Shown: piece after piece, positions 2,140 through 42,170 of the stretch | Position numbering within the stretch: position 1 is the first letter of the stretch | Layout of the letters: each line of letters opens with the position of its first letter | Position numbers and translations under genes: made by a program | Assembly: GCA_051313645.2 (NCBI GenBank) | Contig: JBNRSN020000009.1 | Span: 160,332,001-160,396,000, forward strand | DNA from: Centroscyllium fabricii | Taxonomy: Eukaryota | Reading direction: 5' to 3' | DNA: 64,000 nucleotides | The notes under the pieces: model-generated | Database searches by the model: none | Seen by the model: the letters and a program-made list of their open reading frames with translations, nothing else | Told to the model about the DNA's origin: nothing

Positions 2140-3806
2140 CTATGTGAGCCGTTGGGGTGGCCGGATGATGCGGCCGGACCGTGTTGCATGTTGCTTCTGG
2201 TTCTGCGGTGGAGTGTGGGCGGGTTTTGTTGCGGGAGGGCGACCGCGTTGTGGTGGTTGTACGGGGACAGTCGTCTCGCCTGCTATAACGTGTGCCGGCT
2301 TGAGCCGGTCTATTGTCACAGTTTCAGTCCTGTTGCCCATTTGCAGTTCGAAAGCTTTAGCTCCCGCCCGAAGCACTCTGTAGGGGCCATCGTATGGTGG
2401 CTGTAGTGGAGATCGGTGTCCGTCACGCCGGACGAACACGAATTTTGCGTTTTTGATGCCGTCCGGCACCCGAGCTGCCGGCTCTCCGTGCCGGGCCACT
2501 GGTAGCGGCTGGAAAGCTCGTGCCGGGTTGGCGAAGTCTTTTAAATACTGGTCGGCTGACCAGGGAGCGTTGGGCTCGGCTAGGAACTCGCCCGGCACTG
2601 TTAAGGCTTGGCCGTAGACGAGTTCTGCTGCCGAGGCGTTTAGCTCTTCCTTGACTGCCGAGCGCAGCCTGAGAAGAACCCATGGGAGGCGGTCGGTCCA
2701 CGACGCGTCCTTGAGGGTGGCTCGTAGTGATGCCTTCATTGAGCGGTGGAACCGTTCGCATAGCCCGTTCGCTTGTGGGTGGTATGCGGTGGTTCGATGT
2801 AGTGTTACCCCGAGGTCGCGGGCGATGGCCGCCCATAATGCTGACGTGAACTGGGGTCCTCTGTCGGAGGTGATGTCGGTGGGCACGCCGAAGCGGGCGA
2901 CCCAGGTGGCGATGAACCCCCTGGCCAAGTCCGTGGTGCCGGTGGCGGTGAGGGGGACTGCTTCTGGCCAGCGAGTGTTGCGGTCGACCATGGTCATTAC
3001 GTGCGTGTGGCCCCGGGATGGCGGTAGTGGCCCGACGAGCTCAATGTGGACGTGGTCAAAGCGTCTGGCCGGCACTTTAAAAGTTTCCAGCGGTGCCCTG
3101 ATGTGCTTATGCACTTTGGAGCGCTGGCAGGCAATGCAGGAGCTGGCCCAGGCGCGAACGTCCTTGCGCAGGCCGCGCCATACGAACCGGGCCGAGATAA
3201 GTTTGAAGGACGCGCGGGTGCCGGGGTGGGACAGGTCATGGAGGGTCCTGAATATGTGTCGCCTCCAAGCGTGGGAGACGACGGCCCTGGGCTGCGGCAG
3301 GGATACGTCGCAGCAGACGACGGTGGCAGCGGGGCCGTGCGCTATATTGGCCAAGTGGAGACCCGGGAGATTTGCTGCTGAGTTGAGCAGGTCAGGGTCG
3401 GCCAGCTGGTCTGTGGCCAGCTGGGCGAAATCGACCGCCATTTGGGCGGCGTTAATGGTGGGGCGTGAGAGGCAGTCAGCGACCACGTTGTCGCGGCCGG
3501 AGATATGTTGGATGTCGGTTGTAAATTCCGACACGGCCGCGAGTTGGCGCTGCTGCCTGGCCGACCAGGGTTCGGCGACCTTAGCCATCGCAAACGTGAG
3601 TGGCTTATGGTCGACGAAGGCTGTGAAGTGGCGGCCCTCCAGGAGGAAGCGAAAATGTCGCACTGCCAGATGGAGAGTGAGGAGCTCCCTATCGAAGGCG
3701 CTGTACTTAACCTCTGGGGGCCGGAGTTGCCGGCTGAAAAAGGCCAGGGGCTGCCACGAGTTGCCGGTCCACTGCTCAAATACGGCCCCGACCGCGTGGT
3801 CGGAGG
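2140..3806 (-). pseudogene. pol: pol remnant: RNase H (RT_RNaseH) plus integrase
   Basis: SDHAVGAVFEQ...PLAFFSRQL...YSAFDRELL (RNase H); HHCC zinc finger (LHDLSH...CIAC); catalytic core HIELVGPL / TSDRGPQF / NGLCERFHR with the first Asp changed to Glu; GPY motif. Confidence 0.92.
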
Positions 3807-5104
3807 ATCTCCTGTTTGGCCGGGTCGAGCCTACGGGCGTGGGCATGGACGGGAGGGCCTGTGGTAGTAATAAAGTGTTCCACCCCGTGTTTGGCCTGGC
3901 GGGCGGTGAACGTGGGGTTGGTTAGGGCGGGGAACTCTGCAAGGAGTGTGCCGTAGGCATCGGAGTTCCGAGAGCGGCATTGGGCTGCCGCGTGGGCCAG
4001 GAGTGCGGGCCTTGTGGAGCATGGGATGGTCGACATGTTATTCATGTTGACCAAGCGGCGCCGGGTCACATCGACCAGCAGGCCGTAGGCGCAGAGGAAA
4101 TCTGCCCCGAGGAGGGGTGAAGTGACCTGGGCTGTGACGAAATCCCAGGTGTACGTGTGGCTTGCAAGTGTAATTATGAGCTTGCGGGTGCCGTACGTTT
4201 TAATACTGGAGCCGTTGGCCGCTGCGAGTGGCGGGCCCCGGGTGCCTTGTTTGGTTTCTGCAGGGGAGGCTGGCACGATGCTGTGCTGCGCGCCTGTGTC
4301 GCAGAGGAACCTAAGGCCTGTGCCTCTGTCTGTAACAAAGAGCAGTGCTCCTGTGTGGCCTACAGACATAGTGGGGGCTGGGTTGGGCCGTGGCTTGAAT
4401 GCGCATGGCTGGACGCAGCGGTGCGCTTTGTTATCGAACCGCGTGTGGTAGTAGCACCAGCCGGTGCTAGAGGGACGCGGTTGCCTAGGTGGGCGCGGGG
4501 CCCTAGGTTCAGGCGTAAAGTTAGGCCTGGGGGGTGATTGGTTGCGCTCTACCGATGCGGAGTTAGGGTCGCACGTGGTTGAGCGGGTGCGCTGCGCCTC
4601 CATGAGCCTGTCGGCTTCCTCAGCGAGCTCGTCGTCGCTCCGTTGGCCAAGGGCCGCCAAGGCCGGTCTGATGGAGCGGGGCAGTTTAAGGAGGAAGACG
4701 GTGCGGAACAGGGAGGCGGGATTGGCTGTAAGCGCTTGCATCTGACCTAGGAGGTCTGATGGGTCTGCGTCCCCGAGTTCGGGGAGGTCAAGGAGCTGGC
4801 AGTCGCGCTCGATTTGAGAGGGGGTAAAAAAAATTATAAGCGCGGCCTTAAGGGATTCGTACCTGCCTGTGGTGGGCACACGCTGTATTTTTGACCACAT
4901 CCGATCGATCGTCGATTACGGTAGGGCTGAGAACACCAGGTCATAGCGGTCGTCCCCCTGGATGCCATGTGTGCGGCAGCTGGTCTCGATGCACATAAAC
5001 CAGGCCGCTGGCCGTTGCTCTCAGAACTCCGGTAGAGTTAGTCTGTGTCCGAAGTTCTGGCCAAGTCCTTGTGTTCGTGGAGCTTGGTTCCTTGCTCTTG
5101 CCAT
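3776..5104 (-). pseudogene. gag: gag plus aspartic protease with two in-frame stops, ending at the RT deletion
   Basis: ATG at 5104 is in frame with ORF 3776-4900; LPEF*EQRPAAWF gag N-terminal motif; CYYH...AHRC..PC knuckle; protease FLCDTGA; KHGVEHFITTTGPPVH linker. Confidence 0.85.
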
Positions 5105-34825: not shown

Positions 34826-35071
34826 ATATATTTATATATATATATCTTTCGGATGAGACATTAAACCGAGCTCCCAGTTGCCCTTTCAGGTGGATGTAAA
34901 AGGTCCCATGGAACTATCGCGAAGAGCAGGGGCATTTTCCCCGTTGTCCTGGCCAACATTACTAAAGCAGGTTATCTGGTCATTATCACATTGCTACTTG
35001 TGGGAGCTTGCTGTGCGCAAATTGGCTGCCCCGTTTCCTACATTACAACAGTGACCACACTTCAAAAAATA

Positions 35072-35484
35072 CAGGTTGAGCACCGGTAATCCGGCACCCG
35101 ATGGTCCGGCAGCTTCAGTGGTCCGGTACGATTGGAAACCGGCGCTCTTCATTTTGTGGAGCAGCCGCTCGGTCGCGCCACCGTTTCCCGCGAAGGGTGA
35201 GCGAGTGCCGGGCGCTTGGGTTTCTGTTGTTTTGGGTTTCTGTTTTTTTAGGTTCTCTAAGTGTTCTATCCCCGGGACCCTCCCAGGGAGTGTTCGACCC
35301 CGCGCTCTGGGCCCCGGGAAGTGTTCTACCGTGGGCTCTGGGCGCCGGGGAGTGTTCTACCGCGCGCTCTGGCCCTGGGTAAAGTTCTACCCGCGTGCTC
35401 CCCCGAACCTTCAGTGGTTCGGAATTTTCAGTGGTCCGGCACCGGCCTGGTCCCGAGGGTGTCGGATTAACGGTGCTCAACCTG
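35072..35484. mobile_element. Tigger/pogo-like MITE inserted in a Deu-SINE
   Basis: Same TIRs; flanks TA/TG; the Deu-SINE 'ttcaaaaa.ta|cttcatt' is interrupted. Confidence 0.88.
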
Positions 35485-36505
35485 TGCTTCATTTCTCTAT
35501 CAAGAAGCATTTAGATGAGCACTTGAAATGCCATAGCATACAAGGCTATGGACCAAGTGCTGGAAAATGGGATTAGAATAGACAGGGCTTGATGGCCGGC
35601 GTGGACGTGATGGGCCGAAGGGCCTCTTTCTGTGCTGTATAATTCTCTGGCCCAGAAATTCCACTCATCGCATATCGGGTTTAAGCTCTACGAGCGCACC
35701 AGAGCTTAAACCCGCAGGAAGCAGCCAGAGCGCACGCTTCGGGTTTTCCTGTGCCGCCCAGTGGGGGGGTCGCTGCTTCCTGCGAGGTCCAGCGCAGGGA
35801 GCTGCGAACTACGAGATCATCCAGTCTTTCCGATGTTTTTAAAAAGTTTTTCTATGGACCAAGAGCAGAAAATTCAACACTGGATAAAAGCAGTCGTAAA
35901 CACCCGTTTTTATCTGGTAAGTGTGTATTTTATTAATTTTAATTGTTGTTTTTTCAGGTTTTTAATTGTTGATAACTTTAAAGACAGGTAAGTATTTTTT
36001 TAGACCTGTTGGAAGTAGAAACATTTTTCTGCAAAAAAATTTTTTCTTTAAAATCGGTTATTTGTGTAAAGCCCCGCTTTCACTGAGGGCTACGAATATC
36101 CCGAATCGTCCCGAATCGAAATTCGTGGCGATTCGGCAAAAAATGTGAAAATTCGTGGTGATTTCGTGGCGATTCGGGAGAAGGTACGAAGCTGTTACGA
36201 ATCTATCACGAATTATTCGTGGCTATTCCGCTTGAAAGATATGCCGAATGCCAAGAATGGTTTAAGAAACAAGTACGAATTCAAAGAATCAGGTAAGAAT
36301 TGTACGAATAAGGTACGACTCACTTACGAATATGCCGAATTATTTTACGAATCCACTACGACCTCCACGATTAAGTTACGACTACTACGAATTATCTACG
36401 AATAGTTTTTGATAATCGGCATTGTTCTTGACATTCCGGCATATTCTTGGTTGACGAAAGGCTATAAAAATCCCCCGAACCCCGGTTGAACCTGTCATTT
36501 CTACA

Positions 36506-37795
36506 ATGGATGTTCAACGGAAAGCATGTGTGGCTCTGGCTATGGAATTGGAGCACCATCACCAACTGCTGGTGTTAAAGGAACCCCCAAGAAGACAGAG
36601 AAGACGCAAGCGCTGGTGGGTTCGACCATGGCTGACACCTGCTAGAAGGCTACAATATGGGCACTACAACAGACTGTTGCAGGAACTGAGGGTGGAAGAT
36701 GAGAACTCCTTCAGCAACTATGTCAGAATGCCACCCCAGATGTTTGATGAGCTCCTCCAAAGGATCACCCCTGTCATCCAGAGGCAGCACACCCGCCTGA
36801 GACCACCCCTAGAAGCTGGACTGACGCTGGCCCTCACCCTCAGACACCTGGCTACAGGAGACGGGTACCCGACCCTCCACTACAACTTCAGATGTGGCAG
36901 GAGCAACGTGGGAGTGATCGTCAAGGAGGTGTGCCACGCCATCATTCAAGCGCTAAAGGACGAGGTCATGCCACTGCCCCGGACCCAGGAGGACTGGAAA
37001 GCCATTGCCCAGCAGTTCCATGACCGGTGGAATGTTCCTCATGACCTGGGGGCCTTGGATGGCAAACACATAGCCCTCAAGAAACCACCCAAGTCCGACA
37101 GTCTGTACTACAACTACAAGGGCTTCTTCTCCGTGGTTCTGCTGGCCATGGTGGATGCTGATTACAAGTTCATCTGGATTGACACTGGTGGACAAGGTCA
37201 TCAATCTGATGGACAGATATTTGGGGCCTCACAACTGAGGGAATGCATCGATGACCACACCATCCACTTCCCTGACGACGACCCTCTGCCTAATGATGAC
37301 AAAGACACGCCCTACTTCATCCTGGGAGACGATGCTTTTGGCCTCAGAACTTTCCTCATGAAACCATATTCCAGGAGGGGTCTCAGTGATGAGATGATGG
37401 TGGCCAACTACCGAATCTCAAGGGGCAGACGCGTGGTGGAGAATGGCTTTGGAATCATGGCCAGCAGATGGAGATGCTTCCTTCGAACCCTCGAACAACA
37501 TCCAGATATGGTGCGCACCATGGTGGAAACAGCTGTCCTCCTTCACAACCTCATGAGGATCAGGTTCCCCGCCATTGGAAACGCAGAGGTGGACCACGAG
37601 GATGACAACCACAACATCATCCCTGGAGCCTGGAGGGACGGCATGCAGATGCACGCGGTTCCACACCCCTATGCACGCAACATAGACCATCAGATGGGCA
37701 AGATCCAGAGGGACTACCTCACAGCTTACTTCAACAGTGCTGCAGGATCTGTTCCGTGGCAGGAGAGAGTGGCAGGACTGAACAACCAAGTTTGA
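36506..37795 (+). CDS. Harbinger transposase (DDE_Tnp_4/HARBI1-like), 429 aa, intact
   Basis: LALTLRHLATG HTH; GALDGKH (D), YYNYKG, LGDDAF (D), RRVVENGFG (E); TATAAAA about 40 nt upstream. Confidence 0.95.
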   Translation: MDVQRKACVALAMELEHHHQLLVLKEPPRRQRRRKRWWVRPWLTPARRLQYGHYNRLLQELRVEDENSFSNYVRMPPQMFDELLQRITPVIQRQHTRLRPPLEAGLTLALTLRHLATGDGYPTLHYNFRCGRSNVGVIVKEVCHAIIQALKDEVMPLPRTQEDWKAIAQQFHDRWNVPHDLGALDGKHIALKKPPKSDSLYYNYKGFFSVVLLAMVDADYKFIWIDTGGQGHQSDGQIFGASQLRECIDDHTIHFPDDDPLPNDDKDTPYFILGDDAFGLRTFLMKPYSRRGLSDEMMVANYRISRGRRVVENGFGIMASRWRCFLRTLEQHPDMVRTMVETAVLLHNLMRIRFPAIGNAEVDHEDDNHNIIPGAWRDGMQMHAVPHPYARNIDHQMGKIQRDYLTAYFNSAAGSVPWQERVAGLNNQV

Positions 37796-37984
37796 ATTTC
37801 AGGATACACAATGACAGTGATTTGACATTTCCTGTGATTATGGTAAAATTGAGGATAAATGGATAAATATGGATAATAGACTGAGGTGTTAAAGTATGAT
37901 AATTTGCCTTTGTGTGCTCAAGGGTTAGATGTATAAGATCAGATTTCTCCCCTCCCCCATGTGTGATCTTTGACTTCAGTCTCT

Positions 37985-38075
37985 CTGTGTTACATGTCGA
38001 AGGGGCAAAAGCACCGAAAGCTTGTGATTTGAAATAAAACCGTTGGACTATGAAACTGGTGTTGTGTGACTTTTT
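37985..38075 (+). mobile_element. Penelope terminal fragment inside the Harbinger intergenic region
   Basis: cgaaagcttgtgatttgaaataaaaccgttggactatgaaactggtgttgtgtgact matches the reverse complement of 32885-32945. Confidence 0.8.
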
Positions 38076-38323
38076 GGATAAATTGAGACAATTTTAATTT
38101 GAAAGTTATTTTTATTGTGATAAATAAATAAAGTGTTAAGCAACAAAAGGAAACCAGGATTTAAACAGCAAACAAGGTATATTGGGAAAAATTTTTACAA
38201 CTTACATATAACCACAAATTTTTAGAACTATTATTATAACCACAAATTTTTAGAACTAACATATAACCACAAATTTTTAGAAATAACATGTAACAATAAA
38301 TTTTTTGAACTTACAATTAACAA

Positions 38324-39778
38324 CTAAAATTCCAATTGCTCCTGTTCAGTGTCGTGTTCAGAGAGGCTGACAAAAGAGTCATCCAGTGGTGCACTCATGT
38401 CAGGCTGTTGGCTGTCTGCAGGTGGATTAAGGGTCGCGTATGTGGGGGAATCAGTGTGCCTGGAGGTTCCTGCCTGCTGATCAATCCAGGATCTTTCAGC
38501 GGGATGCCAAGCATGATGAATCACAGGCTTCGAGGGCCACTGCGGCTGATGTGCCTGCCACTGGCCTTGCTGTTGGTAGGGTTGATACCACTGACGAGGA
38601 GGAGGCATGGACAGGGTGGATGAGGTGCGTGGTCTCTGTCGAGAGGCTGCTGGTTCTGGTGGAGGTGGTGCTAGCGATGCTGCCTGGCGGGACTGCTCCA
38701 TTTCATCCACCTCACTTTCAGCTTCGGATAGGAGCTGTGACATTTTGTCCCTCAGCTGTATGAACATAGTGGTGGGCAGTCGCTGAAATGCTTGCCCCAA
38801 ATATTCGCCATACTTGAGGCGGTCCGGAAAGGGAACAGCAGGAACAGTGGGTGCTTTCAGGATCTGGAGCAGCTCTCTCTGCCTCTCCCTTGAGCAGGCC
38901 ATCTCCCCTGCAATGTCCTCCTCTTCCTCCATGGCTGACCCTCTCCCCTTTCCTCTGCCACCTCTGGAGCTGCTGGCGGTGGTGAGGGTGGAGCTTGGGG
39001 TGCTGTCCTGCGGTGGCGTGGTCACATTACCTTCCTGCAGGTCCACATCATGATCCCTGTCCTCAGGATCTCCAGTAGCCGGCTGTGTGGTAGCAGGCTT
39101 GAGGCTCTGCACAGTCCGCCTCATGACCTGGCCGATGTGCAGTACGAGGAACTGGAAGCGGCTCCAGATCCACTGCTGCCTCTCAGTCAGCTCCAAGGTT
39201 CCCTGGCCACTCTTTTTCCTCCTCATCTTCCCCATCTGTGTCCTAATACTGTCAAAGAAGGTTGTCAGGGCCTTCACCTGCTTGCCCATCCTCTTGGCCA
39301 GTTCCTCCCACGCCCTGTTTTTCCGGTCAGCGAAGCAGTGGTCCAAACGCCTCTTGTTAAATATGAAGTCGTGGGTTTCCAGAAAGAGGGCCACCTAGAA
39401 TAAAATTAATATAGTTGTATACAAAATCAAATTGACGATAGTGATTATTAATAAAGGAATATCACATATAAATATAACAGTTACCTCCTCTTGTTCTCCG
39501 TCAGTCAGTTTTGAAAGGAGCCTTGCCTTCTTTGGCTTGAACCCCTGTGACCCCGTGGATGGAGGAGCTTCCCCGTCGGTAGCATCGTCGGCCTCCAGCT
39601 CGACCTCGTGCGACTGGTGTTCCTCCTCCGATGGAAGATCTGGGTCGGCTACATGTGCTGTAGGGATGTCTTGAGGTACAGCTGGTTCCCTCTGGCTGTC
39701 CTCTATCACATCTTGGGCGCGCTTGGTGGCTTTGCCGCGTCCCTTGGCCTTGCTTGCTGGTCCTGCTCTTCTCTTCAT
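38324..39778 (-). CDS. Harbinger Myb/SANT (MADF-like) DNA-binding protein; 2 exons (39778-39485, 39394-38324), about 454 aa
   Basis: 90-bp AT-rich phase-0 intron GTAACT...TTCTAG (39484-39395); the joined reading LTDGEQEE|VALFLETHDFIFNKR...KNRAWEELA...DSIRTQMGK...KSG is MADF/trihelix-like. Confidence 0.88.
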
Positions 39779-41314
39779 GTTTTAAAGTGGTGAACTGTAG
39801 CACTCAGTGAACTCTGACCTGGTCAGTTTGGCGCCAACTGCCTGATTCGTGACCGATTCGTACTTGATTCGTACTACATTCTGGACATTCGTGCCTGTTT
39901 CGTGATGTATTCGGCGTGGGTCCACGAATTTGAGGGAGTCACGAATGCCCACGAATAGGCAAGAATGCAGAAGAAGCGATTACGAAGCCGTTACGGACGA
40001 TAAGAAAGGTTCACGAAGTGTTTACGAAGCGTTGACGAATTTGAAATTCGTGAACCCTCCCACGAAAGTTTTTGACAAGCAAAAACTTTCGTGCAAAATC
40101 GAAGAAATCACGCGAACTCACGCGAACTGTACGAATGTTTACGAATCAACTACGAATCAACTACGAATCATTTAAGAACTCCAAGAATTATCTACGAACC
40201 GGACAAATTTCAGATTCGGGACGAATCGGGATTTTCGTAGCCCTCAGTGAAAGCGGGGCTTTAGTTGGGGTAATGTTTAAAAAATGTGGTGTTTGTAAAA
40301 TTTTATTTTTGTGTTTAGATGTCTTTTGGGAATCTCTCCTTTCAAAACTCGCACAGATTTCTCTGTGGAAGTTTTGAACGGAGAATTGCTTCCACTGATT
40401 GGCAGGGCACGTGGTCTCAAAAGCCACTTCGCACTAATTACGCCCTTCAGATGCCCATGAAACTCGCATGGAGCTCTGACAGGCTGGGCTAACGGGAATT
40501 TCTCAGTGCAAAAAAGCAAAACTGAATATGGGCAATTAAAGTGCGTTAAGCAGGTACTGCACCCGCACGAAGGCTCCACTGCAATTTCTGGGCCTATGAC
40601 TCTATGGTCTGTGGGAAGTCCTGAGGTTGTGAAGGACTATACATTATATGTTTACATATCAGACTTCCACTGACGATCTCATAGTGCTAATCATGACCTC
40701 TTGTTGTGGTGCTGCTTTTCCTGGTAATCTTCAGTACAGAGAAACCTCTCGCCCTGCCTCTTCGACCCTGCTGTTACCGTGTGCCCACCATAGCTCAGTG
40801 ACTGGGCTGTGATAAGCATAATAAGGGTTACAAATGAGCCTGGAGATAATTCTGTCCTTTGGGCTGTGCTAGATAAAGCAGCATTATGATGATACAGCTT
40901 ATGACAACCTTCACTCCAGCGAATCCTCTAGGGCAGGTGAATGAAAGGGGGGGGGGGCGTCGAGGGGGAGGAAATGTTCGCTGCTATTTTCAAATCCCTT
41001 CTGCCAGATGGGACTTTATTAATTTCATGCCAAATAGTCAGAATTAAGAGACTTTTCTGCGTTCAAAGAAAAATCGAACTTCCATTTATGTAGCGTCTCA
41101 TCACATCCTCAAATATCCCAAATTACTTAACAGCCCAGGAGATACTTTTTGAGGTTTAGGCAGTGTTGGTATGTAGGCAAATACAGCAGCACAGCAAGAT
41201 TTTAGAAACAGCAAGTCGATGACCACTTTTAAGGTTGTTGGTGTTACACAAATAACAAAGCAAATGGTGAGCACAGACCAGCTGCCGAGTGTGAATCAAC
41301 TGTAATTTCTCTCG

Positions 41315-42170
41315 TCACTGTCAGTGTGTGTGCGTGTGTGTATAAATACCTCACTGACGGCGCGTGTGTAAATATCTCACTGACGGCGCGTGTGTGTAAA
41401 TACCTCACTGTTGTTACGTGTGTGTAAATACCTCACTGACGGGGCGTGTGTGTAAATACCTCACTGACGGTGCGTGTGTGTAAATACCTCACTGACGGTG
41501 CGTGTGTGTAAATATCTCACTGATGGCGCGTGTGTGTAAATACCTCACTGTTGGTACGTGTGTGTAAATACCTCACTGACGGTACGCGTGTGTAAATACC
41601 TCACTGACGGGGCGTGTGTGTAAATACCTCACTGACGGTGCGTGTGTGTAAATATCTCACTGACGGCGCGTGTGTGTAAATACCTCACTGTTGGTACGTG
41701 TGTGTAAATACCTCACTGACGGTACGTGTGTGTAAATACCTCACTGATGGTACGTGTGTGTAAATACCTCACTGACGGTGCGTGTGTGTAAATATCTCAC
41801 TGATGGTGCGTGTGTGTAAATACCTCACTGTTGGTACGTGTGTGTAAATACCTCACTGACGGTACGTGTGTGTAAATACCTCACTGACGGCGCGTGTGTG
41901 TAAATACCTCACTGATGGGGCGTGTGTGTAAATACCTCACTTACGGCGCGTGTGTAAATACCTCACTGACGAGGCGTGTGTGTAAATACCTCACCGACGG
42001 GGCGTGTGTGTAAATACCTCACTGACGGGGCGCGTGTGTAAATATCTCACTGACGGCGCGTGTGTGTAAATACCTCACTGATGGTGCATGTGTGTAAATA
42101 CCTCACCGACGGGGCGTGTGTGTAAATACCTCACTGACGGGGCGTGTGTGTAAATACCCCTCTGACCATG
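41315..42170. repeat. Minisatellite, about 28-bp unit (gtgtgtgtaaatacctcactgacggggc)
   Basis: About 30 copies; constant core of about 21 nt plus about 7 variable nt. Confidence 0.92.

Follow-up and report, generated by a model that had tools for sequence, protein, structure and literature searches.

The focal element and its flanks

We analyzed a 64,000-nucleotide stretch of the Centroscyllium fabricii genome (contig JBNRSN020000009.1, positions 160,332,001 to 160,396,000 of the forward strand; hereafter the window), in which a two-gene PIF/Harbinger transposon occupies positions 36070-40260. This element, which we call the focal copy, is 4,191 bp long and is bounded by 48-bp terminal inverted repeats at 36070..36117 (plus strand; ends set by 32 aligned copies) and 40213..40260 (minus strand; inverted-repeat search), which extend to 51 nt at 96% identity when the three flanking bases are included. 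The flanking bases themselves disagree: the left triplet (36067..36069) reads TAA and the right triplet (40261..40263) reads TTA, a point absent from the first-pass annotation of this DNA. We use the term swap for such an insertion, whose flanking TWA triplets (W, A or T) differ at the middle base.

The transposase gene (36506..37795, plus strand) encodes 429 amino acids without a stop, matches PF13359 (DDE_Tnp_4, HARBI1-like; E 9.8e-27, 94 bits against a cut-off of 24.8) and carries the residues D185, D275 and E312. Its convergent partner on the minus strand is a MADF (Myb/SANT-like) gene, with exon 1 of 98 codons at 39778-39485, a predicted 90-nt GT..AG intron at 39395..39484, and exon 2 of 356 amino acids at 39394-38324; the joined product of 454 amino acids matches PF10545 (E 1.6e-6, 28.8 bits against a cut-off of 22). 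Because the intron donor and acceptor are retained in all 32 aligned copies, and alignment of the joined product continues across the exon junction in three of three homologues tested, one of them from Lingula, this two-exon model is well supported, with splicing as its prediction. The near-perfect inverted repeats, the uninterrupted transposase with its D/D/E residues and, as a predicted gene model, the convergent in-frame spliced partner described in the first-pass annotation are therefore borne out.

An AT-rich 27-bp tandem repeat, whose copy number differs among copies, lies between the two genes (38189..38339). Subterminal arrays of ACGAA (25 occurrences) and TTCGT (12 occurrences) span 36092..36458 on the left and 39845..40238 on the right; the left array, which is also retained in ~680-bp non-autonomous copies, likely provides binding sites for the MADF protein. 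CpG observed/expected ratios are 1.82 and 1.63 in the arrays, 0.64 over the entire focal copy and 0.63-0.64 in the remaining window, so that the abundant undecayed CpG previously ascribed to the element is a property of the arrays only. CpG transitions exceed the non-CpG rate by 14-fold in subfamily A and 8-fold in subfamily B (see below), and this excess decay suggests germline methylation.

The focal copy sits inside a host repeat that resembles a miniature inverted-repeat transposable element (MITE), with short inverted ends and a high copy number. The left part of this repeat (35649..36066; short inverted ends, paralogue comparison) and its right part (40264..40594; 95-98% identical to paralogues) are contiguous in empty paralogues. 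These empty sites read TTA in 21 of 24 cases, with contiguous flanks; the right triplet of the focal copy is therefore the same as the target's, and the left triplet, TAA, is not. With one TTA in the empty sites and a TWA on both sides of the focal copy, insertion entailed a 3-bp gain at a TWA target. The only further target preference evident was a G/C bias adjoining TWA.

Family size and the condition of its copies

The 7.2-Gb genome was searched by DNA similarity, with 34 of 9,864 candidates scored, and 32 copies were aligned after leaving out L037 (ends not called) and L044 (ends mis-called). The aligned copies fall into subfamilies A, which includes the focal copy, B, C1 and C2; both frames are open in 18 of them. 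A small census of about 33 copies, with no identical pairs and a minimum difference of 0.50%, was rejected because so few candidates had been scored and exact-pattern counts were far larger: a transposase 30-mer of the family has 1,595 exact matches in the genome, the focal-copy end type has 1,395 (mostly ~680-bp non-autonomous copies), and a sister end type has 18,081. A majority sequence over the whole family mixed subfamilies and was replaced by per-subfamily comparison.

A sister subfamily, D, was sampled through the first 60 not-yet-sampled transposase matches on contig C1, five of which were left out for want of both ends. All of the remaining 55 start with TG rather than AG (a few are intermediate), and they are ~93% identical to the focal copy in the transposase gene. 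The transposase frame is open over at least 420 amino acids in 52 of the 55, and both genes are open in each of the 24 full-length copies, which extrapolates to ~640 (440-850) intact two-gene copies from a sample biased to young ones. The nearest pairs within the 55 have 1, 2 and 3 differences in 4.2 kb (closest, 1/4,198), and among 20 sampled 730-bp subfamily D derivatives two pairs are identical (0/730) with unrelated flanks. Since every full-length copy is open and identical or near-identical pairs are dispersed, subfamily D is likely still, or was very recently, mobile, and is a better candidate for activity than the focal copy. The idea that native activity might be found here therefore survives for the family, by way of subfamily D, and fails for the focal copy itself for reasons given below; the presumed rarity of intact vertebrate copies does not hold in this genome.

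Roughly half of the subfamily D sample (L187, L189, L190 and others; ~2.4-2.6 kb) consists of copies with no MADF gene and an open 428-amino-acid transposase; these are transposase-only derivatives that have spread as sub-lineages. Head-to-tail tandem insertions at L063 and L188 (G000:C1:6486651-6491605) have one TAA in common, which indicates insertion into the triplet that adjoins an existing copy. At the termini, the outermost base varies between A and T with the subfamily and the end, and the two ends frequently fail to complement each other at this base. Among subfamilies A, C1 and C2, synonymous divergence is 3-4% in the transposase and 15-24% in the MADF gene; this disparity suggests that recombination has exchanged the two element halves, a process between sublineages that PMC9179366 calls rare. 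In metagenome contigs, 23 loci matched at 46-67% protein identity, none of them a full element closely related to this one, and a search of the ESM atlas returned generic DDE_Tnp_4 clusters only.

Private changes in the focal copy were read against the subfamily A majority. Seventeen were listed, three of which are alignment noise in the tandem repeat; six of the 14 remaining substitutions are CpG transitions. Three of the changes alter the transposase on the plus strand: K107T (36825), A180D (37044) and G198D (37098). Residue 107 is K in 115 of 119 homologues and T in none; no homologue among 120 has D at 180; and residue 198 is G in 119 of 120 and D in none. All 55 subfamily D copies retain K, A and G at these positions. 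Three never-seen residues is the joint highest number among the 32 aligned copies, and the two new aspartates lie no more than 13 residues from D185. An allele match across the genome placed D180 at two places and D198 at three; the two alleles coincide at the focal locus, and no second copy with both was found. We consider it likely, from three never-seen residues at conserved sites, that the focal transposase is impaired, an effect that is predicted from the protein alignment.

Arguing against this diagnosis, all 24 full-length subfamily D copies carry at least one never-seen residue (Q77 in the five inspected), and subfamily B spread with the never-seen residue S183, as subfamily D did with one of its own, so that such residues are no proof of death. 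Open frames, for their part, overstate competence: L003 has both frames open yet carries D275A at a catalytic residue, and L020 acquired G198D independently. The first-pass annotation took the focal copy to be itself a competent, recently arrived autonomous element, which accords with its two open frames, its intact D/D/E residues and splice sites, its distance of only 0.65-0.76% from the nearest sampled copies, and the success of subfamilies bearing fixed never-seen residues. We find that reading unlikely in view of the number and placement of its own never-seen residues, the lack of any other locus with both aspartates, and the share of CpG transitions among its private changes. The annotation had itself named inactivating changes relative to the consensus as evidence that would tell against it, and K107T, A180D and G198D are predicted to be such changes. 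The focal copy thus appears to be an ordinary, probably damaged member of its family.

Age is harder to read than condition, because slow mutation means that low divergence is not proof of recency in a shark. At the rate given for the epaulette shark, 7e-10 per generation (PMC10587355), the 14 changes of the focal copy in 4,188 sites correspond to 2.4-24 million generations, a figure that CpG inflates. At the same rate even a single difference in 4.2 kb represents on the order of 10^5 generations, and the 60-copy sample, taken from one contig and picked by an exact 30-mer, favors young copies; both points count against present-day mobility of subfamily D. The whole family might accordingly be extinct, its youthful look being due to slow mutation and the focal copy being millions of generations old. 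We judge this less probable, although not negligibly so, because it must accommodate the identical 730-bp pairs in a sample of only 20, the pairs separated by 1-3 differences among 55, and the open genes of every full-length subfamily D copy. As for the claim of a young or recent invader, the low divergence behind it was confirmed, but it does not single out the focal copy within a family of 1,595 transposase matches, and recency is doubtful given up to 24% synonymous MADF divergence among subfamilies, the presence of the family in sequencing runs that also hold the host's flanking repeats, and the slow shark clock.

Swapped triplets and their possible origin

Swapped flanks are not peculiar to the focal copy. 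Across the family, 52 of 180 TWA-flanked insertions are swapped (29%, confidence interval 22-36%), while the other 128 match exactly. Swaps occur in full-length copies of subfamilies A-C (10/29), in older MITEs (23/79), in subfamily D copies (11/53), and in subfamily D MITEs (8/19), the youngest MITE sample. This set left out 17 insertions with a non-TWA flank (12 older MITEs, two A-C copies, two D copies and one D MITE), and L012 and three unpaired MITE loci were also left out of the flank counts.

Point mutation was rejected as the source of swaps. Among 177 insertions, the middle bases of the two triplets disagree as A/T in 47 and with C or G in five, whereas the outer bases disagree in four and five; mutation fails to explain disagreements that concentrate at the middle base as A/T. 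Nor does a swap need time: L259, a swapped MITE, is identical to L260 over 730 bases. A 2-bp TA duplication was likewise rejected, from the copy ends. For 10 of 44 swaps, paralogous empty sites made a direct test possible, and in all 10 exactly three bases separate the contiguous flanks; in six of them, one of the two flanks is identical to the triplet seen most often among the paralogues. At L125, a non-canonical target triplet is kept on one side and TTA stands on the other. Three further loci (L098, L119 and L003) have matched TAA/TAA flanks while most of their paralogous empty sites read TGA; either mutated host copies were selected as targets, or donor letters were written on both sides.

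These patterns likely record DNA carried over from the element's previous site, and a sequence of steps can be proposed by which this would happen. The MADF protein would bind the ends and arrays and recruit the transposase, as has been established for the reconstructed element Harbinger3_DR. The transposase would cut each flanking TWA in a stagger, so that one strand stays on the donor and one becomes a 5' overhang on the element. For mPing of rice, a staggered cut inside the flanking triplets has been proposed, with the donor left bearing 5' overhangs (PMC4561436); the complementary strand of each triplet must then depart with the element, and it is this element-side overhang that we infer. 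The ends of excised piggyBac retain a TTAA overhang, and excision is thereby seamless (PMC7351741). Since TTAA is palindromic, carry-over there is silent, whereas with TWA it would be visible as a mispair: insertion at a TWA of opposite orientation would create T:T or A:A at the middle base. If this mispair were not replaced by fill-in, or were resolved separately at each end, one flank would keep the donor's letter.

The frequency of swaps constrains this scheme in part. The 50% expected with no repair is rejected (p 1e-8). If each end were resolved independently and without bias, an equilibrium of one third would be expected by calculation, and partial fill-in is also compatible with the data. 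Several observations weigh against carry-over as we have drawn it. The observed rate fits both 25% and 33% and is thus compatible with more than one repair route; the commonest paralogous triplet matches neither flank in four of the 10 testable swaps; and 34 of the 44 swaps have no paralogue for comparison. Furthermore, TCA/TCA mPing donors in yeast gave TCA at one of 46 insertions in the experiments of PMC4561436, so that carry-over was rarely kept there.

Two other accounts would separate the swap from the act of transposition. Swaps might arise after insertion, through quasi-palindrome correction or gene conversion between the two ends, an appealing notion insofar as TAA...TTA extends the inverted repeat by three bases, so that a swapped pair makes a perfect inverted repeat, and insofar as the rate is lowest in young long copies (11/53) and higher in older full-length ones (10/29). 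End-to-end correction is nevertheless argued against by the 12 of 23 swapped MITEs that keep non-complementary terminal bases immediately beside the triplet, and the youngest MITE sample is swapped in eight of 19 cases, one of them in a copy identical to another; we regard this account as distinctly improbable. Still less credible to us is an origin in ectopic recombination between copies, or in two nearby TWA sites with a deletion, either of which would draw the two flanks from different targets. Internal mosaicism does show that copies recombine, a repeat flanks a few swapped copies on just one side, and paralogue comparison covers a minority of swaps. However, all 10 testable swaps, including the focal copy, have contiguous flanks with three bases between them, and rearrangement of 29% of insertions over ~10,000 copies seems implausible. 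Carry-over of a donor overhang thus remains the reading we prefer, and we hold the combined picture to be reasonably probable: a full-length PIF/Harbinger family with at least 1,595 transposase copies, whose focal enzyme would be impaired, whose sister subfamily would be mobile, and whose swaps would reflect a 3-base overhang brought from the donor.

Hosts, relatives and known systems

In the window, a long interspersed nuclear element (LINE) reverse transcriptase open reading frame has its best named matches among skate, chimaera and ray proteins, which identifies the host as a cartilaginous fish. The remaining long open reading frames are mostly LINE fragments plus one Gypsy-like piece (labels read from translations, with one LINE frame placed by protein search). 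This piece of a long terminal repeat retroelement, at 2140-4915 on the minus strand and likewise labeled from its translation, has open frames of 593 and 379 amino acids and a CpG observed/expected ratio of 0.96, so that the focal Harbinger is not the only well-preserved element. A second inverted pair (35071-35099 / 35457-35485) lies near the host repeat, and a 28-bp minisatellite of at least five copies occupies 41321-41500.

Horizontal transfer is suggested by relatives of the two proteins and by sequencing runs. Of 1,042 transposase matches, the best 120 were listed. The closest named proteins in that list, at 71-75% identity, belong to an abalone, a vent snail and a brachiopod; other transposase records go up to 86-94%, and a hagfish, at 60%, is the sole named vertebrate listed. 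Transposases of Lingula anatina, Haliotis rubra and Gigantopelta aegis form the sister clade in a quick tree (Shimodaira-Hasegawa-like approximate likelihood ratio test, SH-aLRT, 100), and the closest named MADF partner is from Lingula (50%), where its contig equals in length the one bearing the Lingula transposase.

Of 20 sequencing runs listed, none was marked as RNA and none contained half of the query words, organisms D-H having shares of 0.07-0.10; four runs (X1, X6, X8 and X10) were compared. Runs X1, X6 and X8 have very deep coverage of both the element and the repeats that flank it in the host, with other alleles present, which makes it likely that the family is shared with related hosts. 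X10 yields pieces that together span the full element, with 27/916 and 2/196 differences in the transposase (97% identity) and 114/815 in the MADF gene, and its terminal repeat is followed by TAA. It has zero depth on the host's repeats, and it agrees with subfamily C2 at 26 of the 29 listed sites and with the focal copy at seven; taken together, these features suggest an unrelated host whose element is nested within the diversity of the family, albeit from one run. A contig of this run, possibly an RNA run, extends into the MADF intron with 190 extra letters and is uninformative on splicing. Horizontal transfer at some time is, in our estimation, probable. Expressed vertebrate Harbingers and fish-to-fish transfer are already in print (PMC9179366).

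A search of open-licence papers, with supplements, Repbase and Dfam outside its scope, turned up no earlier description of naturally swapped flanks, nor of a Harbinger family in a shark. According to PMC9179366, Harbinger was not detected in the elephant shark and testing of other cartilaginous fish was called for, a gap that a shark-lineage family answers. Among open-licence papers the search likewise retrieved no study that mapped PIF/Harbinger cleavage strand by strand; evidence for the 5' overhang on the donor side comes from mPing genetics in yeast (PMC4561436). Swapped flanks at 29% of insertions are what the mPing overhang model would predict on the element side, and junction sequencing could test this. 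Annotation filters demanding identical duplications would lose about three in 10 members of such a family, and by the mPing result these swapped copies would excise less cleanly. A Harbinger system that needs no reconstruction would also become available from a vertebrate family in which hundreds of two-gene copies are open. The interest of the locus therefore lies in a large, probably active subfamily D and in the swap as a readable trace of transposase cutting. More tentatively, and at somewhat less than even odds, the whole may amount to several hundred natively active Harbingers with piggyBac-like excision that rewrites the middle base in about three in 10 jumps, a footprint discarded by pipelines, in a family that moved between sharks and an unrelated host.

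The focal element is a member of PIF/Harbinger on every testable feature: a DDE_Tnp_4 transposase with D, D and E, a MADF second gene, 48-bp inverted repeats within the expected ~25-50 bp, and a 3-bp TWA gain. Its 1,595 dispersed copies with terminal repeats are unlike a domesticated gene of the HARBI1/NAIF1 type, which is single copy and has none. Its MADF second gene also distinguishes it from ISL2EU, whose second gene is a YqaJ exonuclease, and from Spy, which mostly has a single frame (groups as outlined in PMC9179366). The Lingula, Haliotis and Gigantopelta Harbingers of the sister transposase clade reside in invertebrate hosts, unlike the focal family. TWA targets and two genes separate it from the piggyBac superfamily, with its TTAA duplication and single transposase gene. 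Mutations at non-canonical piggyBac integration sites were reportedly described by Li in 2013.

Harbinger3_DR of zebrafish, which was reconstructed and mobilized in human cells (PMC2836001), resembles the focal family by description in its DDE transposase and Myb-like gene, terminal inverted repeats, 3-bp duplication and non-autonomous derivatives, but it needed reconstruction, whereas the focal family likely has hundreds of natural open two-gene copies. Vertebrate Harbingers have been described with a 15-bp target preference, in contrast to the G/C bias seen here. Harbinger-1M_cIno of Caenorhabditis inopinata (PMC13668399) is another expanded, TWA-targeting animal PIF/Harbinger, with a de novo insertion shown; it is a nematode element of 258 copies, and because the survey pipeline excluded non-identical flanking triplets by design, a swap would have been invisible to it. 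Identity filters of this kind may be the reason that the swap went unnoticed. Closest in target use are Ping/Pong and mPing of rice (PMC4561436), which insert at TTA/TAA, accept either middle base and are proposed to be cut in a stagger with 5' overhangs; there the non-matching triplets were engineered in donors, whereas those of the focal family are natural. Lastly, piggyBac (PMC7351741) offers a working parallel in that the excised element keeps a target-derived overhang. Only this overhang behavior is proposed to be alike, since piggyBac belongs to another superfamily, has one gene and a 4-bp palindromic TTAA target, and proceeds through a proven hairpin intermediate.

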